Source: Oscillospiraceae bacterium (GTDB lineage: Bacteria; Bacillota; Clostridia; Oscillospirales; CAG-272). Taken from it: DNA of 45,617 nucleotides. Each line of letters begins with the position of its first letter. The first letter of the stretch is position 1. The stretch spans positions 1-45,617 of the forward strand of contig SVQL01000003.1 of assembly GCA_015065365.1 (NCBI GenBank), written 5' to 3'. Made by a program: the position numbers and the translations under genes. Below the pieces are notes generated by a model. That model was given only the letters and a program-made list of their open reading frames with translations, was not told the DNA's origin and did not search any database. Positions 2-31,574 of this stretch are shown here, in pieces.

Positions 2-1795
2 GTGGTCAACGAGCATGGAGTTATGATAGTCGATACCTTTACGGGACGTCTTATGCCCGGAAGAAGATATTCAAACGGTTTGCATCAGGCGATCGAAGCT
101 AAGGAAGGCGTTAAGATAGAGAAAGAGAATAAGACTCTTGCAACTATTACGTTCCAGAACTATTTCAGAATGTATTCAAAGCTCTCGGGTATGACGGGAA
201 CTGCTCTTACTGAGGAAACAGAGTTCCGTGAAATATATCAGCTTGATGTTATCGAGATACCTACCAACAGACCTATGATCAGGGACGACCACAACGACGT
301 GGTCTATAAGACTGTCAACGGAAAATACGATGCGGTAGTCAGGCAGATAATCGAATGTCACGAAAAGGGACAGCCCGTGCTTGTCGGTACGGTTTCCATA
401 GATAAGTCAGAGGAGCTTTCGCGCAGACTTAAGCGCGAGGGAATAAAGCATACCGTTCTCAACGCTAAATACCATGATAAAGAAGCAGAAATAATTGCTC
501 AGGCAGGAAAGCTCGGTGCAGTTACGATTTCTACCAACATGGCAGGACGCGGAACCGATATTATGCTTGGCGGTAACCCTGAATACATGGCGAAGAAAGA
601 AATGCGTAAGCTGGAAATAGACGAGGAGCTTATCGCTATGGCAACGGGAACTGCTGAAATAGACGACGAGGACGTAAAGAACGCAAGAGCCGTCTACCAT
701 GACCTTTACGAGCGCTTCAAGGAAGAAATAGCTCCCGAGGCGCAGGCTGTTAAGGACGCAGGCGGACTCTTTATTCTCGGTACTGAAAGACACGAAAGCC
801 GCCGTATAGACAACCAGCTTCGCGGACGTTCGGGACGACAGGGAGACCCCGGTGAGTCACGCTTCTTCCTCTCACTGGAGGACGATCTTATGCGTCTGTT
901 TGGTTCTGAGAGAGTTCTCGATATGGTTGAAAGACTCGGACTTCCCGAGGATGCGCCTATCGATGCGAAGATACTTTCGGGCAGAATAGAGTTTGCGCAA
1001 AAGAAGATAGAGGATCAGAACTTTAAGCGCCGTAAGTACGTTCTTACCTACGACGACGTAATGAATCAGCAGAGAAATCTAATTTATAAGCAAAGATATG
1101 ACGTTCTTAACGGTGAGGATATAAGCGATACTATACGCAAGATGATAATCGGAACTGTCAGCGATACGGTAGATACGTATTTACAGGGCGACGAGCCGAT
1201 GCATTGGGATCTCTTGGGGCTTAAGAACGTTTACATCGGTCTGCTTACGACTCCGGAGGATTTTGATTATTCCGAGAGCGAGCTTAAGCACCTAAAGAAG
1301 AACGATATTGTTGATATGCTTTGTAATAGAGCAATCAAGGTTTACGAGGACAAAGCAACGGTTATCGGCGAGGAGCGCTTCAGGGAAATTGAACGCGCAG
1401 TATTGCTTCAGAATGTTGATAGGAACTGGATGGAGCATATCGACGCTATGGATGACCTTAAGGACAGCATCAGACTTCAGTCGTACGCGCAAAGAGATCC
1501 CGTAAACGAATACAGACTCCAGGGTGCGGATATGTTTGACGCAATGGTAGCAGATATACGTGACAGAACCTCAAGAATGATTCTTTCCGTAACGGTAAAG
1601 ACTCCCGAGGTTAAGAGAGTACAGCTTGCCAAGCCGCTCAATGAGGGATTTGAGGGCGACGGAGAAAAGAAAATAAAGAAGGTTACGGTTGTAAAGAAGG
1701 CTGCAGAGAGCGTAGGCAGAAATGATCTCTGTCCTTGCGGATCCGGTAAAAAATATAAAAAGTGTTGCGGAGCGCCTTCAAACGCACAAAATTGA
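2..1795 (+). CDS. secA: Preprotein translocase ATPase SecA, C-terminal part (5' truncated by window)
   Basis: Motifs GMTGTA, TNMAGRGTDI, HESRRIDNQLRGRSGRQGDPG and C-terminal SEC-C GRNDLCPCGSGKKYKKCC. Confidence 0.99.
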   Translation: MVNEHGVMIVDTFTGRLMPGRRYSNGLHQAIEAKEGVKIEKENKTLATITFQNYFRMYSKLSGMTGTALTEETEFREIYQLDVIEIPTNRPMIRDDHNDVVYKTVNGKYDAVVRQIIECHEKGQPVLVGTVSIDKSEELSRRLKREGIKHTVLNAKYHDKEAEIIAQAGKLGAVTISTNMAGRGTDIMLGGNPEYMAKKEMRKLEIDEELIAMATGTAEIDDEDVKNARAVYHDLYERFKEEIAPEAQAVKDAGGLFILGTERHESRRIDNQLRGRSGRQGDPGESRFFLSLEDDLMRLFGSERVLDMVERLGLPEDAPIDAKILSGRIEFAQKKIEDQNFKRRKYVLTYDDVMNQQRNLIYKQRYDVLNGEDISDTIRKMIIGTVSDTVDTYLQGDEPMHWDLLGLKNVYIGLLTTPEDFDYSESELKHLKKNDIVDMLCNRAIKVYEDKATVIGEERFREIERAVLLQNVDRNWMEHIDAMDDLKDSIRLQSYAQRDPVNEYRLQGADMFDAMVADIRDRTSRMILSVTVKTPEVKRVQLAKPLNEGFEGDGEKKIKKVTVVKKAAESVGRNDLCPCGSGKKYKKCCGAPSNAQN

Positions 1796-1807
1796 TAAAT
1801 TACAAAA

Positions 1808-1843
1808 GCCAGCCGCATTGTTAAAGCAAATAATGCGGCTGGC
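1808..1843 (+). other. 15-bp stem-loop after secA with no + strand U-tract (stabiliser or weak terminator)
   Basis: gccagccgcattgtt / aaagca / aataatgcggctggc, followed by ggattt; the A-run lies on the 5' side. Confidence 0.7.
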
Positions 1844-1861
1844 GGATTTAAAGGTGAAAAA

Positions 1862-2569
1862 ATGGGATTTGGATTACTGTTTATTGGGTATTTTGTTGCT
1901 ACGCTTATGTCAATAAATATGATTGGTCCGTTTATACGCGTTATTGGGTATGGAATTGTATGCATCGCCACAGCAAAACTCAGCAATTACAATCGGTATT
2001 TCAGACTCGTACAAATAGCATCTGTGATTATGATTTTAGTATCGCTGCTGCTTTCTGTATCTACGGTGACTGATTTTCTTTATAATGAGCTTTTGATCAG
2101 TAAAAATATATTCGACTCACTTTATAAGGCAGTGATCGGGCACGTTGAATCCGTATTATCCTTTTTGTTCGGTACGGTGATGCTTTACGCAATAAGAAGT
2201 ATAGCAGTTGAAACGGAAGACAGTAAAATCGCAATAAATTCAATACGAAATTTTGTATTTATGTGCATATATATGGCTTTGTATATTGTCACGTGCTTAC
2301 CGTTTACCTATACGAATTACTTTGGAATACCTACGTTACTCGCGCAATTTACTTACATAATACTTAATCTGATTTTACTGTTTATGTGCTATACGAGAAT
2401 TTGCGATGAGAGTGATGTTGACATGAAGCGTAAGCCGTCTCGTTTTGCTTTTGTTAACAAAATGCGTGCAGAGCTCGATAAAAGAGAACAGCAAGCACTT
2501 GAAAGTCAAGCTCAGTACAATGAGGAAAAAAGGCGAAAAAAAGAAGCTCGAAAAAAGAAGAAAAAATAA
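1862..2569 (+). CDS. Hypothetical multi-pass membrane protein with basic coiled-coil C-tail
   Basis: SD aaaggtg; about 6 hydrophobic segments; K/R-rich tail. Confidence 0.85.
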   Translation: MGFGLLFIGYFVATLMSINMIGPFIRVIGYGIVCIATAKLSNYNRYFRLVQIASVIMILVSLLLSVSTVTDFLYNELLISKNIFDSLYKAVIGHVESVLSFLFGTVMLYAIRSIAVETEDSKIAINSIRNFVFMCIYMALYIVTCLPFTYTNYFGIPTLLAQFTYIILNLILLFMCYTRICDESDVDMKRKPSRFAFVNKMRAELDKREQQALESQAQYNEEKRRKKEARKKKKK

Positions 2570-2578
2570 GGAGCAAAT

Positions 2579-3955
2579 ATGAAAAATCAAAGCAAAATAA
2601 ATTTTTTGCCAATAGGACTGTCGTTAATATTTTTATTTAATCCCAATATTGCGGTTATTGACCTCTTTCCGGATTTTTTAGGATATATTTTTCTTTCGCT
2701 GGCAATAGTTAAGTTAGCCGATATAAATGAATCGGTCGCAGAGGCGGCATCAATATTCAATAAAATGATACTCGTTGATGCAGCAAAGCTTTTTGCAATC
2801 GTTTGGATATTTTGGATATCTCCTCCTTCGGAGGAAAATTCCGCCGTGCTTTTATGGTCGTTTATATTCGGAGTTTTGGAAATGGTATTCATTATTCCTG
2901 CATTTATAAAATTGTATAAGGGATTTGCAGAGCTTGGATATTTTCACGACAATTATTCAATACTTGGGGCAAGGAACAGAAAAAACAGTAAGATATCAAG
3001 AAGAAATTACACAGAAAAAATACGCTCCTTCACAATTTTTTTCATAGTTGTAAAAGCGACGTTGTCATTTTTACCTGAACTTATTACTATAAGCTTTTCG
3101 GAATATCTTGAATCACACGGTAACGGAATACTCTATGTTCTTCGTATGTTTTCGTTTATTCCCGTTTTTATTGTTGGACTCATATGGATAATTAAAATAA
3201 TTGTATACTTTGGCAGAATAACTAAAGATACTAAGTTGATAAATTCGCTTTCGGCAGCTTATAGAGAAAAAGTGTTACCGCAGAAGGGAATTTTTATAAA
3301 AAGAAACGTAAAAATTTCTTTTGTGATATTATTGGTTGCAGTTGTTTTATCCTTTGACTTCAGAGTACAAAACATTAATATCTTTCCGGACATTCTTTCG
3401 GCATTGCTTCTACTCGTATTCTTTTTATTTATTCGCAGAAAAACAAAGATAAATCTTATTGTACCGATAATACTGTCAGTGTTCGGTGTTATCAGCGGTC
3501 TTGTATCTATGATTTTCGAAATAAGGTTTTTCGAAGAATATACTTGGGATAGTATTTACAGAACAGTACCGGCAATGAATGCGTATACTTTAATGTGTAT
3601 AACGTCAATTACCAATTGTCTCGTATTTGCCGCAATATTTGTGTTCGTGCTTAGGGCTCTAAATTCAACAGTAACAGAGCACACGGGTATTATAGCTTCA
3701 AATAGCTCTGTGAATGAAGCGGCACGTAAAAGCATTAACAAATCGATCCACGCTGAGCTACGGCGGACGCTAATAATTGATGCGTGCGTTATGCTTGTGT
3801 ATACCGCTACTGATATTCTTTACGTACTACTTGCAAAGAATTTTGGAGCTATGATGCTTATAAATGTGATCGGAGCTGCAGCATTTTTTGCTATGCTTAT
3901 TAAAACCTATTTTGACCTTTACGAGGCAGTAATCTCAAGATACGCACTGGAATAA
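2579..3955 (+). CDS. Hypothetical polytopic membrane protein with internal duplication (two FPD motifs)
   Basis: SD aaggag; many hydrophobic segments; DLFPDFLGY and NIFPDILS repeats. Confidence 0.88.
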   Translation: MKNQSKINFLPIGLSLIFLFNPNIAVIDLFPDFLGYIFLSLAIVKLADINESVAEAASIFNKMILVDAAKLFAIVWIFWISPPSEENSAVLLWSFIFGVLEMVFIIPAFIKLYKGFAELGYFHDNYSILGARNRKNSKISRRNYTEKIRSFTIFFIVVKATLSFLPELITISFSEYLESHGNGILYVLRMFSFIPVFIVGLIWIIKIIVYFGRITKDTKLINSLSAAYREKVLPQKGIFIKRNVKISFVILLVAVVLSFDFRVQNINIFPDILSALLLLVFFLFIRRKTKINLIVPIILSVFGVISGLVSMIFEIRFFEEYTWDSIYRTVPAMNAYTLMCITSITNCLVFAAIFVFVLRALNSTVTEHTGIIASNSSVNEAARKSINKSIHAELRRTLIIDACVMLVYTATDILYVLLAKNFGAMMLINVIGAAAFFAMLIKTYFDLYEAVISRYALE

Positions 3956-3973
3956 TATTACATCAAAATCAAC

Positions 3974-4003
3974 GCATATTTGTTAATACAAAAGCAAATA
4001 CTT
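3974..4003 (+). promoter_or_regulatory. Putative forespore sigma (sigF/sigG-type) promoter
   Basis: gcata-N15-gcaaatactt resembles GYATA-N15-GGnAAnAHT. Confidence 0.4.
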
Positions 4004-4143
4004 TTAACGTGCGAGAAAGAAATTCCGCACACCTTTGGTAAGTGCATTTAGATTGACTGCAAACGCCTCCTTTTTCCAATAGCGAACGGTGCCGATTCCG
4101 TCAATGAGGGTATCTTCGTTGATTGATGCATTTGGAGGGTAGA

Positions 4144-15701: not shown

Positions 15702-16988
15702 GTGTTAGGTAAAAACAATAAAAACAAAAAAGAGCAATCAGCGAATTTTCGCTCAAAATTCGGCTTCTTGGGTAAGCTTGGTAACTATTTCAACCCCGAA
15801 CCACAAAAGGAACGTGTTCTTCGTCACGAGGACTTTAATGCAGCAGGAGACGTGTTCTATGCATCTGTTTCCGCAGGATATAAGATTTCTCAAAGAATTA
15901 TCGTAATAATTCTTATCGTGTTTTTGCTCTTTTCGCTTATAACGAATTTTAATCATATTACCTATGATAATTTCTTCTACATTTTGAAGGATTTCGTAGC
16001 CGCGGCGGACGTAGAATCTACCAATTACGAAACGCTTTCATATACGTCCAATCCAAGGAACTTTTTTGCACTATACAGAGGCGGCTTAACCGTAGCAAAT
16101 CCATCAAAAATAACTGCGTTTACCGCCACGGGCAGACAGACCATAAATTCTTCCGTTCAATTTTCATCACCATGTATTAAAAGCTCGGATAGATATTTCG
16201 TTGTTTACGACATATCGGGTACGACGTTTGCCGTATATAATTCATTCGCAAGAATTTATAAAGAGGATTTAGAATATCCTGTTACTGGTGCTTGCTTTGC
16301 CCAAAACGGTAATATGGCTATTATGACAAGGGATATTGACCACAAATCCATAGTACACGTTTACAATGATAATTTTAAAAAGCTCTTTACTGTGCCTTCT
16401 TCAACAAAATATGCTTTTGATGTGTCAATGAACAGCGAAGCTGATAGGCTTGCTATAACCTATTTTGACATAGGCATGGGAATGGGAAGAATAACAGTTG
16501 ACGTATATAATCTCTCGGGTAAGGAAGTCACCGATATTGTTATTGATGGTGAATACGTACTGTCAACGGGATTTATTTCGGAAAATATTTTTGCCGTTGT
16601 AACTGATAGAGCAGTTCATCTGTACGACAAGAATTTTGAAGATATAGATGATTACTACGATTACGGTGGCGGAACCGTTACGGGATATCGTGTAAACGAG
16701 TATGGAGTTGCCGTAGCTTATACCGTAAATTCTCAAAATATAGCTATTGCATTTGACAAATCCGGAAATATGTTATATAATGAAAATATTGACAGTAACA
16801 TAAAAGACGTTGATATTTTTGGAGAATATATTTTCTTTAGAACAGATTCCGGAGTTGTGCGTATCAATACATCAAGCTTTGATGAACAGCAGCTGACATC
16901 GGGACAGGGCGATATGCTTATATACAGTGAAGATACCGCGTTAATTTGTGGAGATTCAAAAGCTGAATATTTAGTATTCGGAGAATGA
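15702..16988 (+). CDS. Single-TM protein with predicted beta-propeller ectodomain (DUF5711-like)
   Basis: GTG after SD aaagggg; one N-terminal TM then repeated short beta-strand units; position after truA. Confidence 0.75.
   Translation: MLGKNNKNKKEQSANFRSKFGFLGKLGNYFNPEPQKERVLRHEDFNAAGDVFYASVSAGYKISQRIIVIILIVFLLFSLITNFNHITYDNFFYILKDFVAAADVESTNYETLSYTSNPRNFFALYRGGLTVANPSKITAFTATGRQTINSSVQFSSPCIKSSDRYFVVYDISGTTFAVYNSFARIYKEDLEYPVTGACFAQNGNMAIMTRDIDHKSIVHVYNDNFKKLFTVPSSTKYAFDVSMNSEADRLAITYFDIGMGMGRITVDVYNLSGKEVTDIVIDGEYVLSTGFISENIFAVVTDRAVHLYDKNFEDIDDYYDYGGGTVTGYRVNEYGVAVAYTVNSQNIAIAFDKSGNMLYNENIDSNIKDVDIFGEYIFFRTDSGVVRINTSSFDEQQLTSGQGDMLIYSEDTALICGDSKAEYLVFGE
16753..16781 (+). promoter_or_regulatory. 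Perfect-consensus sigma-A promoter inside the DUF5711-like CDS
   Basis: TTGACA (16753-16758)-N17-TATAAT (16776-16781). Confidence 0.6.
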
Positions 16989-17010
16989 TTTTAAGTAAAG
17001 GAGGCAAAAA

Positions 17011-17478
17011 ATGACTGTTAAAAAAAGAAATAAGCAACGTTTTAAAACGGTACTGTTTGTATTTGTATCATTGCTTTCTGTATTACACGGTCTTGATTTT
17101 GGCGACCTTTTGCTTCCCGATCTTATTGACATAGGTACTGAAATATTAAGTATAAGCTTTTCTGAAAAAATTTACAGCACGTTAGTCGCGGTTTTGGGGA
17201 CAATTATATTATTGATATCTGTTTGCGTACTGTTAAAACGTGTTTTTAGAATAATAGACGGAAAATCTGACAAAAGAATCAAAAAAGCCCTGTTGCACAG
17301 AATCTGTACGGCACTCAGCGCATTCTTTGAAAAATTTACCGTTAAGTTTGTTTACAGAAAAGCTATACGTATTGTAAAAAAATATGTAATAGATTTAAAA
17401 GCCAAAGCAATCTTCGACAAGCAAATGAAAATGCCCAGACAACTGCTTGTCTTGCGATTCTCGCGAATTTTAATTTGA
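17011..17478 (+). CDS. Hypothetical basic membrane protein, possibly divergent CvpA-like
   Basis: Strong SD aaaggagg; two hydrophobic segments; K/R-rich C-half. Confidence 0.7.
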   Translation: MTVKKRNKQRFKTVLFVFVSLLSVLHGLDFGDLLLPDLIDIGTEILSISFSEKIYSTLVAVLGTIILLISVCVLLKRVFRIIDGKSDKRIKKALLHRICTALSAFFEKFTVKFVYRKAIRIVKKYVIDLKAKAIFDKQMKMPRQLLVLRFSRILI

Positions 17479-17535
17479 TAAAAACCTCTTTAAGCAATTT
17501 TACAAATAAACTATTTGATTAGAGGTAAAAACAAA

Positions 17536-18120
17536 ATGAAGTTAAAAAACATTCCAAATATTTTGTCAATTATCAGAATATTATTGGTTTTTGTATTCGT
17601 AATAATTCTTTTCGTATTTGATAATTTACCGCTTGCATTGCTTACGTTTTTAATCGCTGGACTTACGGATGTTGTTGACGGATATCTTGCACGAAGAAAC
17701 AACTGGATAACAAATCTCGGCAAAATTCTTGATCCTGTTGCTGATAAACTGATGCAATGTACCGTACTTGTAAGCCTTTTGATTAAGGGAATAGTTCCGT
17801 GGTGGTTTGTAGTTCCTTTCTTTGTGAAGGAAATACTTACGCTTATACTTGGTGCGGTAGTTATTCGCCGCAGGAGCGTTAACGTAGTAAGCAAGTGGTA
17901 CGGTAAATTTGCGGTTTGTCTGTTCTACGCAACCGTGGCGGTAGCTATTTTGTTCAATAATTTCCTTGTAAAGCATCCTCTTATTTATGTTTTAATATTC
18001 ATTCCCGCAATTGTTTTTGCAATAGGTGCAATGATAGCTTATATCAAGCACTATGCATATCTAAAAAAAGAAGAGATAAACAAAAGCGGTATTATAGATA
18101 ATATCCGAAAGGGCCAGTGA
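17536..18120 (+). CDS. pgsA: CDP-alcohol phosphatidyltransferase (PgsA-like)
   Basis: NIPNILS..R, TDVVDGYLAR, LGKILDPVADK. Confidence 0.9.
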   Translation: MKLKNIPNILSIIRILLVFVFVIILFVFDNLPLALLTFLIAGLTDVVDGYLARRNNWITNLGKILDPVADKLMQCTVLVSLLIKGIVPWWFVVPFFVKEILTLILGAVVIRRRSVNVVSKWYGKFAVCLFYATVAVAILFNNFLVKHPLIYVLIFIPAIVFAIGAMIAYIKHYAYLKKEEINKSGIIDNIRKGQ

Positions 18121-18149: not shown

Positions 18150-20450
18150 ATGGTAATGTGTTCAAGATGCCACAAAAGAGTGGCGGTGGTTTTCGTAACC
18201 AAATTAGAAAATGGAAATAAAATAAACGATGGCTTGTGCTTAAGATGCGCCAAGGAACTGGGATTGCCGGTTGATAATATGCTTGGCAACGTAATGAATC
18301 AGTATGGAATATCTGCTGACGATCTTGAAGCTATGGAGGATAATCTCAATAACATGATGCCGGCTCCGTCAGATAATGATGACGTTGAGGAAGGTGGCGC
18401 TCCCGCTATTGACCTTCCTAAGCTTTTTGAGGATGCCGGACTTCCATCAAACACTCCCGAATTGCAGAATCGCACTAAAAAGAAAAACGGTGACGACAGC
18501 TCAAAGCAAAAGAAATATAAATTTCTTGATACCTATTGCCGCAATCTTACAAAGCGCGCAGCAGATGGAAAGCTTGACAGAATTATCGGCAGAGATAAGG
18601 AGCTAGACAGAGTTATACAGATTCTTTGCCGAAGACAGAAAAACAATCCTTGTCTTATAGGCGAGCCGGGAGTTGGAAAGACCGCAATAGCAGAGGCTCT
18701 TGCGCAAAGGATTGCTGACGGAAACGTTCCGTATAAGCTTAAAGAGAAGCAGATATATCTCGTTGATCTTACGGCACTTGTTGCAGGAACGCAATTCAGA
18801 GGTCAGTTTGAGTCAAGAATTCTCGGGCTTCTCTCTGAGGTTAAAACGGCAGGGAACGTAATTCTCGTTATTGACGAGGTGCATAACATCGTAGGAACAG
18901 GAGATGCCGAGGGAAGTGTAAATGCAGCAAATATTCTTAAACCAGCACTTTCTAGGGGCGAGGTTCGCATTATAGGCGCAACCACACTTAACGAATACCG
19001 CAAATATATTGAAAAGGATACCGCGCTCGAAAGGAGATTTCAGCCTGTAACCGTAAACGAGCCTTCAATAGATGAAACAATCGAAATGCTTGAAGAAATA
19101 AAGCATTATTACGAGGAATTTCATTCTATAAAGATACCGGATGGGGTAGTTCGTCGAGCTGTAATTATGTCTGAAAGATATATAATGGACAGATATTTAC
19201 CCGATAAAGCAATAGATTTGCTTGACGAAGCAGCGTCAAAGCTTTCTCTTACAAGCTCGGTGTTGAACGAAGCTCAGGAAATTAGAGAAAAGCTCCTTAC
19301 ATTTAAGGAGCAGCGTGAGAACCTCGAATCACAGACTCCCGCTGATGAGAATGCCTCCCGCCGTTGCTATGAAGAGATTGCTGAAATCAAGGCTAAGGAA
19401 ATACAGCTTTCAGCAAAGCTTCGTGAAATTGAGCCTTCATGTGAGCAGGTGGTTCTTTCAGAGCAGGATATTGCAAACGTAATCGAGCTTTGGACAGGGA
19501 TTCCTGCAGTTGATATATCTAAGAATGAGTTTGAGCAGATAGATAATCTGGAAAACAGACTTAAGAGTCGAATTATAGGTCAGGATACCGCCGTTGAAGC
19601 AGTTGCAAGGGCAATCAAGCGTAACAGAGCGGGAATTTCCTATAAGAGAAAGCCAGTATCCTTTATATTTGCCGGTCCTACCGGCGTTGGAAAAACGGAG
19701 CTTGTTAAGACACTGGCAACCGACCTTTTCCATTCTCCGGAAACGCTTATAAGACTCGATATGTCTGAATTTATGGAGAAGCATTCAGTATCAAGAATTA
19801 TAGGAGCGCCTCCCGGATACGTTGGCTACGATGAGGCAGGTCAGCTTACTGAGAAAATACGTCGCCGCCCTTATTCGGTAGTGCTTTTTGACGAGATTGA
19901 AAAAGCGCATCCCGATGTGCTTAATATTCTTCTTCAGATACTTGATGATGGAAGAATTACGGACGCAAGAGGTAAAACCGTAAATTTTGAAAACACGGTT
20001 ATAGTTATGACTACTAACGCAGGCTCTGACAGCACCGCGTCAACCGTAGGCTTCTTTTCCTCAGAAGATACAGGGAAAAACAATAAGACAATGAAGGCAT
20101 TATCGGTATTCTTGCGCCCTGAATTTATAAACCGAGTTGATGAAATCATAACCTTTAATTCACTTACGGTTGATAATTTTAAAAAGATAGCCATAATAAT
20201 GCTTGAGGAGCTGAAGGCGGTTCTTAGTGAAAAGGATATACGCTTTACGTATTCCGATAAAGCGGTAGCTTTTATTGCACAAAAGTCGTATTCTCAAAAA
20301 TACGGTGCTAGAAATATGCGTAGATTCATTTGTACGCATGTTGAAGATCAGCTTGCCGAAAAGATCATTTCCGATTACGACAGAAGAATTTGCGGTGTTT
20401 CTCTGAAATATTCCTCAAAGGAAGATAAATTGATAATTGAGAGTATCTGA
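18150..20450 (+). CDS. Class I Clp/Hsp100 ATPase with N-terminal Zn finger (ClpE/ClpC-like)
   Basis: CSRC...CLRC; GEPGVGKT and GPTGVGKT Walker A; RRFQ; GAPPGYVGY; VGF ClpP-docking loop. Confidence 0.95.
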   Translation: MVMCSRCHKRVAVVFVTKLENGNKINDGLCLRCAKELGLPVDNMLGNVMNQYGISADDLEAMEDNLNNMMPAPSDNDDVEEGGAPAIDLPKLFEDAGLPSNTPELQNRTKKKNGDDSSKQKKYKFLDTYCRNLTKRAADGKLDRIIGRDKELDRVIQILCRRQKNNPCLIGEPGVGKTAIAEALAQRIADGNVPYKLKEKQIYLVDLTALVAGTQFRGQFESRILGLLSEVKTAGNVILVIDEVHNIVGTGDAEGSVNAANILKPALSRGEVRIIGATTLNEYRKYIEKDTALERRFQPVTVNEPSIDETIEMLEEIKHYYEEFHSIKIPDGVVRRAVIMSERYIMDRYLPDKAIDLLDEAASKLSLTSSVLNEAQEIREKLLTFKEQRENLESQTPADENASRRCYEEIAEIKAKEIQLSAKLREIEPSCEQVVLSEQDIANVIELWTGIPAVDISKNEFEQIDNLENRLKSRIIGQDTAVEAVARAIKRNRAGISYKRKPVSFIFAGPTGVGKTELVKTLATDLFHSPETLIRLDMSEFMEKHSVSRIIGAPPGYVGYDEAGQLTEKIRRRPYSVVLFDEIEKAHPDVLNILLQILDDGRITDARGKTVNFENTVIVMTTNAGSDSTASTVGFFSSEDTGKNNKTMKALSVFLRPEFINRVDEIITFNSLTVDNFKKIAIIMLEELKAVLSEKDIRFTYSDKAVAFIAQKSYSQKYGARNMRRFICTHVEDQLAEKIISDYDRRICGVSLKYSSKEDKLIIESI

Positions 20451-20452
20451 TA

Positions 20453-23179
20453 ATGAACGAAAAATGGTTTCTGTTAAGCATTGCTGAAATAGAAAAAAAA
20501 TTAAAAACCAATGCCGCCTCGGGACTTACCCGTAAGGCGGCTCGTTCTGCTTGGTATCGTTTCGGTAGAAAAAGCGGTAATTTGTTTATAACCCAAAGAA
20601 AGAGCTTAGGTAAAATGCTCGGAGAGATTTTCGCGGATTTTTCTTTGATAATGCTTTTGCTGGCAGCGTTGTTTGCTATACTTTTCGACGAAGGTCACAT
20701 GGGCTGGACAGTAATGAGTATCGCTTTGATAAGTTTGATTTTTTCATTTGCTGTGTATTACAATCTTCAGCGAAGTATGGAACAGCTCAATTTATATTTT
20801 CAGCCAACCGCCAAGGTCATTCGTGGCGGAAAGCTATATAAAATTGCCTTTGACAACGTGGTTCCCGGTGACGTTATTCTTCTTGAAAAGGGTGATGTTG
20901 TCTGCGCTGACGCTCGTTTGGTTACATCTGATAGCCTAAAAGTATCAATGCGCGTAAATAAAAGCAAATACATATCCTTGGACAAGCAATCAAACGGAGT
21001 TATTTCTCCCGATGAAAATAATCCTGCAAAATTTCTTAATATATTGCACGGCGGCTCCGTAATAGCGGAAGGAAGTGCGAGAGCGATAGTTTACGCCACT
21101 GGAAAGTATACGTATCTTGGCGCTATGACGGGCGGTATTGTGCAGCCTTATAACGATAATGTTCCCCAAGAGTTAAAGAAAATGAGAAAAATATGTGCCC
21201 GTATAAGCATGTTTTCTCTTGTTGCAATACTTCCATTTTGTGTCATAAGTATTATTTTAAGTAAAATGACAGGTGAGGGTGCTGTTCTTTCCTCGACGTT
21301 TCTTACTGCTCTTGCAATAGCAGCGTCATCAATGACACAGCTATCGTGTACATTATGCAAAGTATTCTTTATAAGTAAAATAAAAAGCGCATTTAACGAA
21401 AAAAGCGCCGTTGCGATTCGTACAACAGATGCTTTTGATAAGCTTCATAGCGTAAATTATTTGTTTATGCTTGACGGAGCGGCGGTTACAGACGGCGTTT
21501 TACATTTTGATGATGCATTTACAGCTGATGGTGAAATCGCAGGATTTGTTAAGTGCAATCCAACAGTAAAATTACTACTGGAAATGGCAGAGCTATATAA
21601 CACGGCCGACTCAAATATGCTTACGGTTGGAATAAATCCCCCCAATAGATTTAAAAAGGGACTTAATGAATTCGTTTCAAATGGTAACCTTGATACACAG
21701 GTTTTAAAGCTTAGATGTCAAATAAAATCATATCTTCCTGGAACTGCTAAAGCGCCCACAGATCAAGTATTTTATTCTGATACCGGCAGACAATCTGTTT
21801 TATGCGTGTCAACCTCGCACAGCATTTTGTCCGAATGCTCACACGCGTATGTTTCCGGAAGTGTGCAACCGCTTTCAAGCATGGGCATAGACAAGCTTAG
21901 GCATACCTATGAGCTTCATGCTGCTAAAGGCAAGACTGTACTGATTTTCACTCTTACAACTCCCGAAAAAGCAGGAAGCGCATTTGGAAAAATATTTGTA
22001 GGCTGTGTCGTTTTGCGCGAAGGTATTGACTCAAATGCATACAAGGGTATTGCGGATTTGCAGAAAAAGGGAATTAAGCTTATTTCGTTTGTAAGTAATG
22101 AGTTGAATTCAAACGCCCCTAAAATTCCTATTGAATATCATTCAAAGGCTTCGGCGCATAAACAGGAATTTATAAATAACGGCGTACCTATTACTTATAA
22201 ATTTGGAGAAATAAATACTTATTACGGCGTATGTGTTACAGATGTAGAGGAGCTTCTTGACTATGCTCATAAAAAAGGCGAATCGGTCGCGCTGATAAGC
22301 TTTTCGGAAACTTCGCAAAAAATAATTCAGTCTGCGGATGTTATTATTTCCTGCGCGTCGCTCGTAAACGTATTTTCCGCCAAAAATGAAGAAGAGCTTT
22401 ATAGCATGGAGATGGCAGGCTCGCGCACAAGTACTTCGTGCGAGCAAGGTATAAAATCCAAGGCTGATGTGTTGCTATCGCGTCCGCGAAATAACAAGGG
22501 AGGAATATCCTCGTTGGTCTCTGTGCTGTCTTTTGCTGAAATGGCTTACAGAAATATCAATAGTTTTTTCAAATATATGCTGTGCGCACAGCTATTAAGG
22601 CTTATTATCGTAGCATTACCAATGGTTTTAGGAAATCCCGCCTTGGATGCCCGCCACGTAATAATTTGTAGCTTTTTAATAGATATTATTGTTCTGTTAA
22701 TGCTCGCATCAAACAAAACTCCCGTTGCTCCATCAAGACGGCAACAATATAAAATGAAATCCTTAAAGCAACACTTGATCAATGAGGGACGGTTATTATT
22801 GTGTTCGCTTGTTTCTGGGATTATTGCAATTATTGTCCCCGTTGTAATGAATACTGTCGGAATATTCGGTCAGCTGTTATATGACGCAGAATTTTATTTA
22901 TGCGCTTTGATATGGCTACACTTGATATTGGCATATTACATTCGATTTGGTAGCATACGAAACATTATTTATGCTGTAAAAAACAAATTCTTTTTAGGTC
23001 TTACCTTGGGGACCGTTGCGTTTTTAATCCTTGCTTCAATGATAAATGCGATAGGTATATGGTTTAATATAGACACTCATCAGCTACCGTATTTTATTGC
23101 ATCGTTTGTTCCGTCTGTTGCCTTTGGAGCAATTTATGAATTGTTCGTAATCACTCGTAAAGCTCAAAAGCGTCAATGA
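20453..23179 (+). CDS. P-type (Ca-ATPase/P2-like) ATPase homologue lacking all catalytic motifs (pseudoenzyme)
   Basis: Cation_ATPase_N-like start, VVPGDVILL..GDVVCADARL, ATG..T.LG and P2-like TM layout retained; TGES, PEGL, DKTGT, TGD and GDGxND absent. Confidence 0.85.
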   Translation: MNEKWFLLSIAEIEKKLKTNAASGLTRKAARSAWYRFGRKSGNLFITQRKSLGKMLGEIFADFSLIMLLLAALFAILFDEGHMGWTVMSIALISLIFSFAVYYNLQRSMEQLNLYFQPTAKVIRGGKLYKIAFDNVVPGDVILLEKGDVVCADARLVTSDSLKVSMRVNKSKYISLDKQSNGVISPDENNPAKFLNILHGGSVIAEGSARAIVYATGKYTYLGAMTGGIVQPYNDNVPQELKKMRKICARISMFSLVAILPFCVISIILSKMTGEGAVLSSTFLTALAIAASSMTQLSCTLCKVFFISKIKSAFNEKSAVAIRTTDAFDKLHSVNYLFMLDGAAVTDGVLHFDDAFTADGEIAGFVKCNPTVKLLLEMAELYNTADSNMLTVGINPPNRFKKGLNEFVSNGNLDTQVLKLRCQIKSYLPGTAKAPTDQVFYSDTGRQSVLCVSTSHSILSECSHAYVSGSVQPLSSMGIDKLRHTYELHAAKGKTVLIFTLTTPEKAGSAFGKIFVGCVVLREGIDSNAYKGIADLQKKGIKLISFVSNELNSNAPKIPIEYHSKASAHKQEFINNGVPITYKFGEINTYYGVCVTDVEELLDYAHKKGESVALISFSETSQKIIQSADVIISCASLVNVFSAKNEEELYSMEMAGSRTSTSCEQGIKSKADVLLSRPRNNKGGISSLVSVLSFAEMAYRNINSFFKYMLCAQLLRLIIVALPMVLGNPALDARHVIICSFLIDIIVLLMLASNKTPVAPSRRQQYKMKSLKQHLINEGRLLLCSLVSGIIAIIVPVVMNTVGIFGQLLYDAEFYLCALIWLHLILAYYIRFGSIRNIIYAVKNKFFLGLTLGTVAFLILASMINAIGIWFNIDTHQLPYFIASFVPSVAFGAIYELFVITRKAQKRQ

Positions 23180-23207: not shown

Positions 23208-23237
23208 ATATTGATTTTTGCAAAGGAGATTTTGGTT

Positions 23238-23537
23238 GTGGACAGATTTAACACTTGTGAGCTTAGAGATAAAGAAGTAATAAATTTGTGTGACGGTGCG
23301 CGTCTTGGCTGCCCATCGGATTTTGAATTCAATAGCTGTGACGGAAAAATCACCGCAATAATTTTACCGGGGCAGGGCGGTTTTTTGGGATTTGGAAAAT
23401 CAAGGGATATTATAATACCTTGGAATAAAATCGAGTGTATAGGTGAAGATACGATACTTGTAAGACTGCCACACAACGAATTTTTTATTCCTGACGAGGA
23501 TAGAAAGAAAAAGAAAAAAGGTTTTTGGCAACTATAA
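23238..23537 (+). CDS. YlmC/YmxH family sporulation PRC-barrel protein
   Basis: ELRDKEVIN..DGARLG, IIIPWNKI..IGEDTILV. Confidence 0.93.
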   Translation: MDRFNTCELRDKEVINLCDGARLGCPSDFEFNSCDGKITAIILPGQGGFLGFGKSRDIIIPWNKIECIGEDTILVRLPHNEFFIPDEDRKKKKKGFWQL

Positions 23538-27872: not shown

Positions 27873-28874
27873 TTACTCCGTATCCGCATCAGCAGTATCA
27901 GAAGCAATCTCACCGCTGTTTTCGGTAACATTATTGGGTTGATAAGAATCTATCATATATTTTTGAATTACGGGAAACGCAGCATAGGTCGCAATAAATC
28001 CAATCGTAGATACTATATACACGAAGGGAAGTACCAAGGGAATTGATATTCCATACGGTAAGAGTAGAATTATAAGGAATATGTGAATTGCTAAAAGCAA
28101 CGCAATTCCTATGAGAGCTACAACGTTTCGAAGAATTCCAAGAACTGAGAAAATAAGCGCGTTTTTTAGTATTTTCAAATTTTTGAGGTTGAAGGTAACA
28201 AGAAGATTGTATATATAAAATCTCATCATTATCCAGATAATAGAAAGTGCGAGAATCGCAATATACATGAAGTCAAATCCAAATGACCCCGTGAGATTAT
28301 AGAAATACATGAAGTCCACCACAAGAACGGCGCTACATATAAAATCTATAAGCCCAAGAAAAAATGCTTGTTTAAAATTCTTCTTTACTCCGTATACGTA
28401 ATCAGAAAATACAAACACGGGATCTCCTCTGAAAAGTCCGCGCAGAACGTATGCAGAGCCTACGTTTTGCCAGCCCCAAGTTATAGCCAAAATAATAAAC
28501 ATTGCTATAATTATTATGTTTACAACCGGACTAAATACAGGGATTTCCATCTGTATAAACGATAAATCCAGCATTGCAGAAGCGGACGGAGAATCAACAA
28601 TCGAGTTTATTCCATAAAGCGGCGCGTACAAAACATCCGGAGCTGTTGGGGTTTTTTCTCCAAGCAGGAAAATAAACAAGACAACAAGGAGCGGTACTAC
28701 CATAAGTAGCATTAAAAGATTTAGTTGCAAAAGCTGCGTAAATTTTCTAAATAGCAGTTTAAAGAAAAATATTAGATTGGGTTTTCTGCTTTCAGCCTCA
28801 TAAACACCCTTGCCATCGCGGTTCATATCGAACAGCTTAAATTTTTTTTTCTTGTTTTCGTTTGTTCTTTTCAA
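27873..28874 (-). CDS. YesL/DUF624-like membrane protein
   Basis: TTG after SD aagga; QLNLL, DYVYGVKKNFKQA and KNALIF patterns; multiple TMs. Confidence 0.75.
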   Translation of the reverse strand: MKRTNENKKKKFKLFDMNRDGKGVYEAESRKPNLIFFFKLLFRKFTQLLQLNLLMLLMVVPLLVVLFIFLLGEKTPTAPDVLYAPLYGINSIVDSPSASAMLDLSFIQMEIPVFSPVVNIIIIAMFIILAITWGWQNVGSAYVLRGLFRGDPVFVFSDYVYGVKKNFKQAFFLGLIDFICSAVLVVDFMYFYNLTGSFGFDFMYIAILALSIIWIMMRFYIYNLLVTFNLKNLKILKNALIFSVLGILRNVVALIGIALLLAIHIFLIILLLPYGISIPLVLPFVYIVSTIGFIATYAAFPVIQKYMIDSYQPNNVTENSGEIASDTADADTE

Positions 28875-28897
28875 TTTTTAACATCCTTTATTATTAA

Positions 28898-29497
28898 TTA
28901 TAAAACGTATATTAAAAGACAGTAAATTCCGTCAATTATAAGTGTAACGACAATAGTACTAAGCGTATATAAGATGATGCGGAATAAAGACTTATTATTT
29001 ATTGTGGTTCTTCTGTTTGCGCCTATTTTTCTAAATTCCAACGATTTGAATGCCGCCAAACAAGCATATAAAACAACAGCAAGCAACAACACTCCTTTGA
29101 ATATCCAAAACACAAGGGAATTACCGATTCCAAGCTGTTCAAATCCCGCCAGCTTTATAACTGCTGAATTTACTCCAAATCTGAATCCAAGGAAAAGTAT
29201 TACAATATCTGATATTACGTAGTTTATGAACGAAAAAGAAAACACGAACAGCACCAAGATACAAGCTATATCTACTAACGCTATCTGCGAAAAAATATCC
29301 CAAAAAGATACCTCGGGCGAAGATGCATTAAAGCTTATATAAAGCTTCGCCGTAAACCGCTGTATAGCAGTCGGTGTAAGCATATTTGAAAAGCAAATTC
29401 CACCAATTACGGACACTATAAGCATTACGGCAAATTGAAAAACAATTTTTGCTTTTTCAGTTTCCGTGCTGTTTTTTAAATAACTTCTAAACACCAA
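28898..29497 (-). CDS. Membrane protein, probable divergent SpoIIM
   Basis: 199 aa, about 5 TMs, IGGICF, FLGFRFG, IIDGIY end; SD ggaggt; sigE-like cataatt upstream. Confidence 0.5.
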   Translation of the reverse strand: MVFRSYLKNSTETEKAKIVFQFAVMLIVSVIGGICFSNMLTPTAIQRFTAKLYISFNASSPEVSFWDIFSQIALVDIACILVLFVFSFSFINYVISDIVILFLGFRFGVNSAVIKLAGFEQLGIGNSLVFWIFKGVLLLAVVLYACLAAFKSLEFRKIGANRRTTINNKSLFRIILYTLSTIVVTLIIDGIYCLLIYVL

Positions 29498-31275: not shown

Positions 31276-31307
31276 GTACAGAACAAATGAATGGAGATAG
31301 CTTTGAT

Positions 31308-31574
31308 ATGATGTATATTTCAGCCGGCAAAGAGCGTTGTGTAATACTCGCATCTTATCTTGTAGAAAATAATACAACCGTAAGAGGAGTCGCAGCGCAT
31401 TTTGGTATCAGCAAAAGTACGGTACATAAAGATATTACCCAAACGCTCAAGCGCGTAAACAAACCGCTTTATTATCAGGTAAAGCACATACTGGGTATTA
31501 ACAAACAAGAACGTCATATACGCGGGGGAGAGGCAACACGAAGGAAATATAAGCAGCTTAACAGTATTAATTAA
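31308..31574 (+). CDS. spoIIID: Sporulation transcription regulator SpoIIID
   Basis: TVR..A..FGISKSTVHKD, NKQERHIRGGEATRRKY; start uncertain (31287, 31308 or 31311). Confidence 0.96.
   Translation: MMYISAGKERCVILASYLVENNTTVRGVAAHFGISKSTVHKDITQTLKRVNKPLYYQVKHILGINKQERHIRGGEATRRKYKQLNSIN

Follow-up and report, generated by a model that had tools for sequence, protein, structure and literature searches.

The closest sequence relative of solved structure for the protein described here is LMCA1 (lmo0841), the Ca2+-ATPase of Listeria monocytogenes (PDB 6zhf, 6zhh and 9euq). An architectural parallel is provided by the eukaryotic protein TMEM94/ERMA, which has a P-type-like architecture without TGES and for which a structural study (PMC12134183) reports no sign of a phosphorylation-dephosphorylation cycle. 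Full-text literature searches, with most subscription journals and TCDB outside their scope, found no catalytically dead P-type ATPase in bacteria, in agreement with the remark in an initial annotation of this DNA, made from the letters alone, that no characterised bacterial example was known. A later paper (PMC13322241) reportedly argues that TMEM94 is a true Mg2+-ATPase, and its catalytic status is disputed. Here we examine a gene in a 45,617-nucleotide (nt) stretch of DNA from an Oscillospiraceae bacterium (contig SVQL01000003.1 of assembly GCA_015065365.1, positions 1 to 45,617; hereafter the window), which encodes a P2-type ATPase homologue with its catalytic motifs replaced, the pseudo-pump.

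20453-23179, + strand: pseudo-pump gene, a P2-type ATPase homologue with catalytic motifs replaced (open reading frame, Pfam and NCBIfam matches, LMCA1 match, AlphaFold2 model, Foldseek matches, substitution rates).

The pseudo-pump is very probably a folded, membrane-embedded and catalytically inert P2-type homologue, maintained by selection and belonging to a large, fast-evolving family. The gene is an uninterrupted open reading frame (ORF) of 908 amino acids (aa) with an ATG start. A profile search against the P-type domains finds the E1-E2_ATPase domain of Pfam (PF00122) over residues 117-292, well above its cut-off (5.4e-17, 62.3 bits; cut-off 28.1), and weak, sub-cut-off matches to the N- and C-terminal cation-ATPase domains. 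The same scan gives no match to the HAD hydrolase domain (PF00702) or to the Cation_ATPase nucleotide-binding domain (PF13246). HAD and nucleotide-binding domains are present in every working P-type pump. The NCBIfam models of P2 and P3 pumps cover only the first 250-385 residues or so, at 50-80 bits against cut-offs of 500-975; the best of these partial matches, to the H+-ATPase model TIGR01647, scores 80 bits and lies far under its cut-off. With HMMER, LMCA1 is the closest solved relative (E 4.8e-24, residues 24-545), and the alignment places Leu340 at the phosphorylated Asp of LMCA1.

The pseudo-pump is confidently predicted to fold as a complete pump. An AlphaFold2 model built on a 134-sequence alignment has a mean predicted local distance difference test score of 93.3 and a predicted template modelling (TM) score of 0.90, and contains A (actuator), P (phosphorylation) and N (nucleotide-binding) domains and ten membrane helices, with the elements in pump order. 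The only low-confidence stretch, residues 642-644, lies inside a P-domain insertion that is described below. The fourth membrane segment (M4) is modelled as three helices, 279-292, 296-301 and 304-315, and is thus broken at the old PEGL position. When the model was compared with the PDB using Foldseek, at least 270 matches were returned at E<=0.001, and all of those listed are P2 or P3 pumps; the highest query-normalised TM scores (0.72-0.74) are with SERCA bound to sarcolipin in an E1 state, SERCA with phospholamban, and Na,K-ATPase in its E1.Mg2+ state. Structures of pumps in E2 states match less well (0.57-0.60), and as this is a predicted model we draw nothing from the E1 likeness. The initial annotation had proposed an uninterrupted 908-aa frame with the architecture of a P2 Ca-ATPase, and the ORF, the Pfam and LMCA1 matches and the predicted fold all bear this out.

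To place the motifs we aligned 33 family members with eight canonical clostridial P2A pumps using MAFFT L-INS-i; the canonical pumps serve as a yardstick and were drawn from genomes of the same class, in which DKTGT is present in 29 of the 29 top non-family matches. The alignment of family and canonical sequences is unambiguous over the full length, and the following segments of the pseudo-pump correspond to motifs of working pumps.

20960-20971, + strand: former TGES dephosphorylation loop, now K170-S-K-Y173 (alignment to the eight canonical pumps; column make-up in 134 relatives).
21332-21349, + strand: M4 ion-site IPEGLP, now MTQLSC (residues 294-299; alignment, with the helix still broken there in the model).
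21458-21505, + strand: former phosphorylation site, now YLFMLDGAAVTDGVLH (residues 336-351; HMMER against LMCA1, and MAFFT).
22019-22030, + strand: DPPR, now EGID (residues 523-526; MAFFT).
22085-22099, + strand: MITGD, now SFVSN (residues 545-549; MAFFT).
22295-22315, + strand: TGDGVND, with the Mg2+-binding aspartates, now ISFSETS (residues 615-621; alignment and column make-up).

At the dephosphorylation loop, (I)EESSLTGES of the canonical pumps aligns with VSMRVNKS-KY, and the former TGES columns vary across the 134 relatives. At the phosphorylation site ICSDKTGTLT aligns with LFMLDGAAVT, such that the column of the phosphorylated Asp holds Leu340 (21470-21472) and that of the Lys holds Asp341 (21473-21475). 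At column 340 the eight commonest residues, which account for 124 of the 134 relatives, do not include Asp. Elsewhere, KGA of the N domain is replaced by VST and the conserved P-domain Lys by V598, whereas VPGD (137-140), GDVVCAD (147-153), ATG (215-217) and ADV (628-630) are kept. Among the best 120 listed homologues, PF00702 is present in the precomputed domains of none. The motif losses are far beyond chance and common to all relatives examined. Set against what distinguishes P2A pumps, the protein has the fold but lacks DKTGT, TGES, the HAD motifs, KGA and DPPR, and the ion ligands; among the attributes of a functional pump only the fold and the Asp of the sixth membrane helix (M6) are present. 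The initial annotation had read these replacements nearly letter for letter, together with the survival of VPGD, GDVVCAD, ATG and ADV, and the alignment agrees with it except at MITGD, where its ISFVS is shifted by one residue and is properly SFVSN.

Invariant residues of its own mark the family. In 33 sequences of 32-88% identity there are 48 invariant columns, many of them common to live pumps and mainly in the A-domain core. A second group is peculiar to the family: H199, R210 and Y221 (A domain); D341, D347, G348 and H351, which form a family-specific motif at the old phosphorylation site; R677-P678 and G683-G684, a family-specific RP....GG motif preceding the fifth membrane helix (M5); R716 in M5; D732-A-R-H735 between M5 and M6; D744 in M6; and E813. 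At the old active site, D341 and G342 are found in 33 and 31 respectively of the 33 sequences of the close clade, and column 341 is Gly in 74 of 101 wider relatives; the prevalence of Gly there means that Asp341 is no conserved nucleophile. The [ST]-D-G..H motif beside it persists in the 134 relatives (D347 in 110, G348 in 113, H351 in 95). Two further segments stand out.

20453-20560, + strand: the N-terminal 36 residues (MNEKWF..KTNAASGL..KAARS), together with the A domain the most conserved stretch.
22346-22447, + strand: family-specific P-domain insertion of about 26-34 residues (632-665) after ADV, a gap in 8/8 canonical pumps, with an omega (dN/dS, the ratio of nonsynonymous to synonymous rates) of 0.02.

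The N-terminal stretch carries the invariants W5, E14, L17, T19, A21, A22, G24, A30 and R31, and mean pairwise identity is 0.57 over residues 1-60 versus 0.24-0.38 in the membrane segments. Within the family the nucleotide-binding domain can be lost or enlarged: one in-frame variant of 707 aa (locus L076, genome G420, 378-2498) is without profile positions of about 350-525, most of the N domain, and in another (locus L068, genome G407, 543-4022) the pseudo-pump lies in a stop-to-stop frame of 1160 aa, where the matched parts are separated by long stretches that have no match. Both sets of coordinates are given in the orientation that runs downstream from clp.

These proteins change quickly. 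The pseudo-pump is 48% and 33% identical to its counterparts in two relatives of the same genus, where the neighbouring Clp proteins are 82% and 77% and RpsB 96% and 95% identical, and across family loci pump identity is 22-48% where the adjacent Clp keeps 58-82%. A FastTree phylogeny groups the canonical pumps closely, on short branches, whereas the branches leading to the dead proteins are very long; the tree was midpoint-rooted, its root is unreliable, and we use it only for this contrast in branch length and for the tight canonical clade. A word-index search returned 904 homologues, the best 120 of which are all 883-924 aa long with 36-99% identity, and an exhaustive search of representatives returned 216 cluster representatives at E<=1e-30.

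The coding sequence is nevertheless under purifying selection. Against an 88%-identical orthologue, L005, the closest with DNA available and the sole locus from a single-protein locus search, we obtained a dN of 0.062, a dS of 0.785 and an omega of 0.079; when the gene was divided into ten segments, the dead P and N domains included, every one of them had an omega of 0.02-0.14. Neighbouring genes in the same pair have values of 0.028 (clp), 0.033 (pgsA), 0.039 (ymxH-like) and 0.016 (rpsB). DKTGT is absent from all 265 collected relatives (P0002-P0266) and from all 40 genomic copies read at full length. Those copies comprise 29 (L036-L064) whose stop-to-stop frames are all 880-1232 aa, and 11 more divergent ones with frames of 707-1160 aa, of which nine reach at least 880 aa and two are shorter but still in frame (845 and 707 aa); frames of at least 880 aa are thus kept in 38/40, and none of the 40 is frameshifted. 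One genome-search match (G423) has a flagged TGA, and its longest frame is 904 aa. Homology to an enzyme family, loss of the catalytic residues and purifying selection, which together mark a pseudoenzyme, are all observed here. The low omega, the persistence of full-length frames, the lack of DKTGT in every relative and copy read, the family's own invariants and the confidently predicted fold argue for a pseudoenzyme under selection and not a decaying pseudogene, as first suggested by the initial annotation. The checks and refuting observations named there went the same way: relatives share the motif loss, dN/dS against L005 is below 1, no intact or frameshifted copy was found among the clp-linked relatives (the match with the flagged TGA aside), and the Asp at 21473-21475, whose placement in a working phosphorylation site would have counted against it, is invariant only in the close clade.

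The ion-binding site is altered in a specific way, with two residues of particular note.

22598-22600, + strand: Arg716 in M5, at the column of a canonical ion-binding Glu (NIGE aligns with QLLR).
22682-22684, + strand: Asp744 in M6, the sole retained ion-site residue (alignment, column make-up).

The canonical Glu at the Arg716 column is one that we take to be E771 of SERCA, and the M5 Asn column holds Q713. Arg716 is present in all 33 close relatives and in 74 of 101 wider ones, and column 744 is Asp in all 33 close relatives, Asp or Glu in 83 of the 101, and Asp or Glu in 116 of the 134 overall. The two positions vary together: Arg or Lys at 716 occurs with Asp or Glu at 744 in 110 of the 134 sequences, neither occurs in 17, and seven are mixed (Fisher p ~1e-15, although relatives are not independent). 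This pattern suggests that the former cation pocket is filled by a built-in Arg716 paired with the retained Asp744, and the membrane domain is probably closed and neutral, not a channel. A paired Arg and Asp filling the ion site argues against ion transport or an open channel.

In its neighbourhood the pseudo-pump directly follows a clp gene and precedes a small gene and rpsB-tsf.

18150-20450, + strand: ClpE-type double-ring AAA+ unfoldase of 766 aa with an N-terminal zinc finger (Pfam AAA, AAA_lid_9, AAA_2 and ClpB_D2-small).
17515-18120, + strand: pgsA-like CDP-alcohol phosphatidyltransferase, 29 nt 5' of clpE and a possible operon mate (PF01066 at 1.1e-33; TIGR00560 at 99.7 bits, under its cut-off of 109.1).
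23211-23537, + strand: small protein of the YlmC/YmxH family directly 3' of the pseudo-pump, followed by rpsB-tsf (TIGR02888 at 73 bits, cut-off 44.2).

The clpE stop codon lies 2 nt before the pseudo-pump ATG. The ClpE protein has a CxxC...CxxC zinc finger whose cysteines (Cys4, 7, 30 and 33) are invariant in 21/21 orthologues, and a VGF loop within 'STVGFFS'; we take the zinc finger and two AAA+ modules to be the hallmarks of ClpE and VGF to be the loop that docks ClpP. The genes tig, clpP and clpX are also within the window. A second feature of the ClpE N-terminus is a GGAPAIDxPKLF motif (residues 82-93, window 18393-18428) within the acidic and otherwise variable linker that joins the zinc finger to the first AAA+ ring; in this motif A84, P85, A86 and D88 are invariant in 21/21; it looks like a docking motif for an unnamed partner, as far as its sequence indicates.

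The pairing of the two genes is widespread. Of 29 family loci read with 1.5-kb flanks, 28 have clp directly 5' on the same strand, and the YlmC/YmxH gene is 3' in 12; all 11 of the more divergent copies are directly 3' of clp, and, among 47 loci of relatives with an upstream flank read, a clpE-type gene directly precedes the pump in 45. Canonical pumps have clp beside them in none of 29 loci with the same flanks. When clpE loci were sampled across the order, clpE was immediately followed in 10/30 by a P-type-like ORF devoid of the motifs: that of the window itself, three of five from the window's GTDB family, and six of 24 from two other GTDB families. None of these ten ORFs has DKTGT, TGES or PEGL. 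Members of the family thus occur in at least three GTDB families, all within one order of uncultured Clostridia from gut and rumen.

Within the window's GTDB family, a genome search with profile A1 found the pseudo-pump in at least 57/151 genomes. To see what lies 3' of clpE where no match was found we read 20 such genomes, 16 taken in listing order and four chosen for high Clp identity; 11 hold a divergent motif-less copy, five run straight into rpsB-tsf and four have other genes. Because 11 of the 16 taken in listing order hold a divergent copy after clp, 57/151 is a floor. Among the 150 matches listed from a class-wide search, with 224 more beyond the list, none from a genome other than that of the window is full-length; given the undercounting by the profile, this sets no bound on the range of the family. 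Canonical pumps score 340-400 bits over their full length with profile A2, above some divergent dead copies; this profile cannot separate dead from live pumps, and position beside clp and motif checks were used for that reason. The wide profile's 20 best out-of-family matches comprise 19 canonical pumps and one dead copy, in genome G587. That copy (L105 4990-7659) is an 890-aa degenerate P2-type ATPase from another GTDB family of the same order, and is more pump-like than the window's (TGES to TGTR, PEGL to PESV, DKTGT to NSGKY, TGD to TDE); its relatives in the same GTDB family (L133, L134 and L140) do follow clpE.

Because adjacency to clpE is kept down to a pump identity of about 22% and across three GTDB families, and because clpP and clpX are in the window, we propose that the pseudo-pump is a non-catalytic membrane partner of ClpE-ClpP. 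Without the phosphorylated Asp, TGES, the Mg2+- and phosphate-binding HAD motifs, the N-domain Lys and PEGL, it very probably can no longer run the pump cycle. Encoded directly after clpE, it would be translationally coupled to it and, in the membrane, would act either as an anchor or adaptor that brings the unfoldase there, or as a regulator whose large A/P/N headpiece serves as a docking surface. We put the explanation as a whole, a selected pseudo-pump together with the ClpE-partner mechanism, at roughly 35%. Taken by itself, partnership with ClpE-ClpP as anchor, adaptor or regulator is a tentative proposal, and the sharper version, in which a complete P2 fold has been recast, in an order of gut and rumen Clostridia, as a non-catalytic membrane receptor for ClpE-ClpP whose headpiece would be a docking or gating surface that directs AAA+ unfolding to the membrane or controls it from there, is improbable as a specific claim. 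If true, it would put the P-type fold to a use, and add a type of protease adaptor, for which we found no published description. A predicted complex of pump residues 1-900 with ClpE residues 1-100 scored 0.00, and having been run with no controls it speaks neither for nor against binding.

Several observations weigh against a ClpE partnership. One family locus (L052) has no clp within its flank, and in G587 the copy and clpE are some 80 kb apart on one contig. ClpE is found in 148/151 genomes of the GTDB family and is independent of the pump; the 5/20 loci in which clpE runs without a pump into rpsB-tsf include genera whose ClpE is closest to the window's, and the N-terminal features of ClpE (the zinc finger and GGAPAIDxPKLF) are the same with or without a pump, with no sign of co-variation. 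A slowly changing ClpE beside a fast-changing pump (58-82% versus 22-48% identity) is not what is usually seen in a tight obligate complex, and within a single order, where gene order is inherited by descent, the counts overstate the weight of adjacency as evidence. There is no sign of shared heat-shock control through CtsR: a scan with a CtsR-operator-like consensus found no operator near clpE, giving four matches at three mismatches versus 6.3 expected by chance. One near-identical contig from within the pseudo-pump gene is present in each of two metatranscriptome runs from animal gut (22791-23115, 325 nt with two differences, and 21770-21941, 172 nt with one difference), a weak hint of transcription given that DNA carry-over is possible and the strand is not shown; most other metatranscriptome pieces derive from the conserved Walker region of other organisms' Clp genes.

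The main alternative is a membrane protein unrelated to ClpE, such as a ligand or ion sensor or an envelope or sporulation protein, in which the old phosphorylation site binds a ligand and the position after clpE is simply inherited. We regard this too as doubtful, if clearly worth consideration. Invariant polar residues specific to the family do cluster at the old active site, conservation is highest in the A domain and the N-terminus, ClpE occurs without the pump, and both the YlmC/YmxH sporulation-family gene downstream and a SpoIIID-like ORF in the window are consistent with such a role. On the other side, adjacency persists in three GTDB families among pumps only about 22% identical, the two genes are 2 nt apart, and D341, one of the polar residues concerned, is not conserved in the wider family.

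Regulation of an active relative is a role of many pseudoenzymes, and the dead pump could likewise pair with and modulate the genome's active P2A Ca2+-type pump. Canonical pumps do co-exist with a dead copy in family genomes (G447 and G402, for example), the same genome as the window has a canonical P2A pump fragment on contig C17, and dimeric P-type pumps exist, with MgtA dimer entries among the Foldseek matches. However, no locus read has a dead copy next to a canonical pump, nothing in our analysis points to heteromers, and the fast sequence change of the dead proteins fits badly with the slowly evolving canonical clade, such that we consider this distinctly unlikely. The fragment itself (L002 3-1802, - strand) has TGES, PEGL and DKTGTLT, and after about 430 residues continues in frame into sequence resembling an ABC-transporter ATPase and runs off the contig end; the fusion may be an artefact of chimeric assembly, the genome being in 129 contigs.

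A passive cation channel or uniporter, using the pump's membrane domain without ATP, was among the roles offered by the initial annotation alongside scaffold, adaptor and sensor. The model keeps the ten-helix membrane domain and the unwound M4, and 40 of 101 wider relatives have Glu at the M4 site, but the M4, M5 and M6 ion ligands are replaced, the co-occurring Arg and Asp occupy the site, and the cytoplasmic domains, needless for a bare channel, are under purifying selection (omega 0.03-0.14). We consider a channel very unlikely, and among the remaining roles on that list the linkage to clpE adds a specific lead. Equally hard to sustain is an unorthodox enzyme in which Asp341 is phosphorylated or another substrate is hydrolysed. 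The near-invariance of Asp341 and Gly342 in the close clade is in its favour, and the hydrophobic-Asp-Gly at 341-342 could be likened to what we take to be the second Asp of HAD motif I; nonetheless, the protein has lost TGES, both Mg2+-binding Asp residues and the Lys of the P domain as well as that of the N domain, column 341 is mostly Gly in wider relatives, and no HAD profile matches, leaving it scarcely tenable. A pseudogene in slow neutral decay, still open by chance, might account for 33-48% identity within a genus whose RpsB is 95-96% identical and for the absence of the gene from some related genomes, but we reject it, as it is ruled out by the measures of selection (omega 0.079 at a dS of 0.79, 38/40 frames of at least 880 aa, 48 invariant columns) and fits poorly with the confidently predicted fold.

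Other features of the region can be noted briefly. A promoter scan was at background overall (33 found versus 30.4 expected). A perfect TTGACA-17-TATAAT at 16753-16781 (+) lies within the 3' part of ORF 15702-16988, and this consensus, 5' of orf155-pgsA-clpE-pump, could drive that string of genes. A terminator scan found a strong terminator after tsf and no strong terminator-like site between the pump and the ymxH-like gene. The SpoIIID-like ORF (31287-31574, +) scores 97 bits, under its cut-off of 111.5; with the YlmC/YmxH ORF, it suggests a spore-forming or formerly spore-forming lineage. At 1e-8 no NCBIfam model matches six ORFs of this otherwise housekeeping region (235, 458, 428, 155, 333 and 199 aa), which lie within 1862-3955 (+), 15702-17478 (+) and 27873-29497 (-).

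In the sources searched these proteins are named 'cation-transporting P-type ATPase' or 'hypothetical protein', and an Atlas cluster of 1,543 members looks like the pseudo-pump family: every member has PF00122, and the families listed for it include no hydrolase domain. Where pseudo-pumps are counted as pumps, the cation transport predicted for gut and rumen Clostridia is inflated. Hundreds of diverged pseudo-pumps also allow the residues needed for folding and packing (VPGD, GD..ADAR, the M6 Asp) to be told apart from the catalytic ones. Through the persistent pairing with ClpE, a membrane-linked function of this poorly understood Clp unfoldase can be put to the test; we found no membrane partner or P-type-like neighbour described for it in the literature. 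A family of dead pumps in bacteria likewise bears on the dispute as to whether TMEM94 is a pump.

In comparison with known systems, the pseudo-pump resembles LMCA1 and the clostridial P2A pumps in length, domain order, the N-terminal GL..R, VPGD, GD..ADAR, the M6 Asp and ten membrane helices, and differs from them in that all of the catalytic and most of the ion-binding motifs are replaced, in its P-domain insertion and RP....GG motif, and in its faster evolution. By structure, the best matches of the model are SERCA1a and Na,K-ATPase in E1 states (PDB 4h1w, 4y3u and 8jfz), which unlike the pseudo-pump are working pumps and share only 14-16% sequence identity with it. The likeness to TMEM94 is one of architecture; TMEM94 is eukaryotic and much larger, has extra domains and keeps a candidate Asp, D417. 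The ClpE encoded next to the pseudo-pump resembles ClpE of Bacillus and Lactococcus in its CxxC...CxxC zinc finger, two AAA+ modules and VGF loop. In the plasma-membrane H+-ATPases of plants and fungi a built-in M5 Arg faces an M6 Asp (R655 and D684 in AHA2); from the alignment and the co-occurrence of the two residues, the pseudo-pump appears likewise to hold a positive side chain in M5 opposite an M6 Asp (Arg716 and Asp744), although the H+-ATPases are active and have all of the motifs. As far as our searches show, the pseudo-pumps would be the first bacterial family of full-length dead P-type ATPases.

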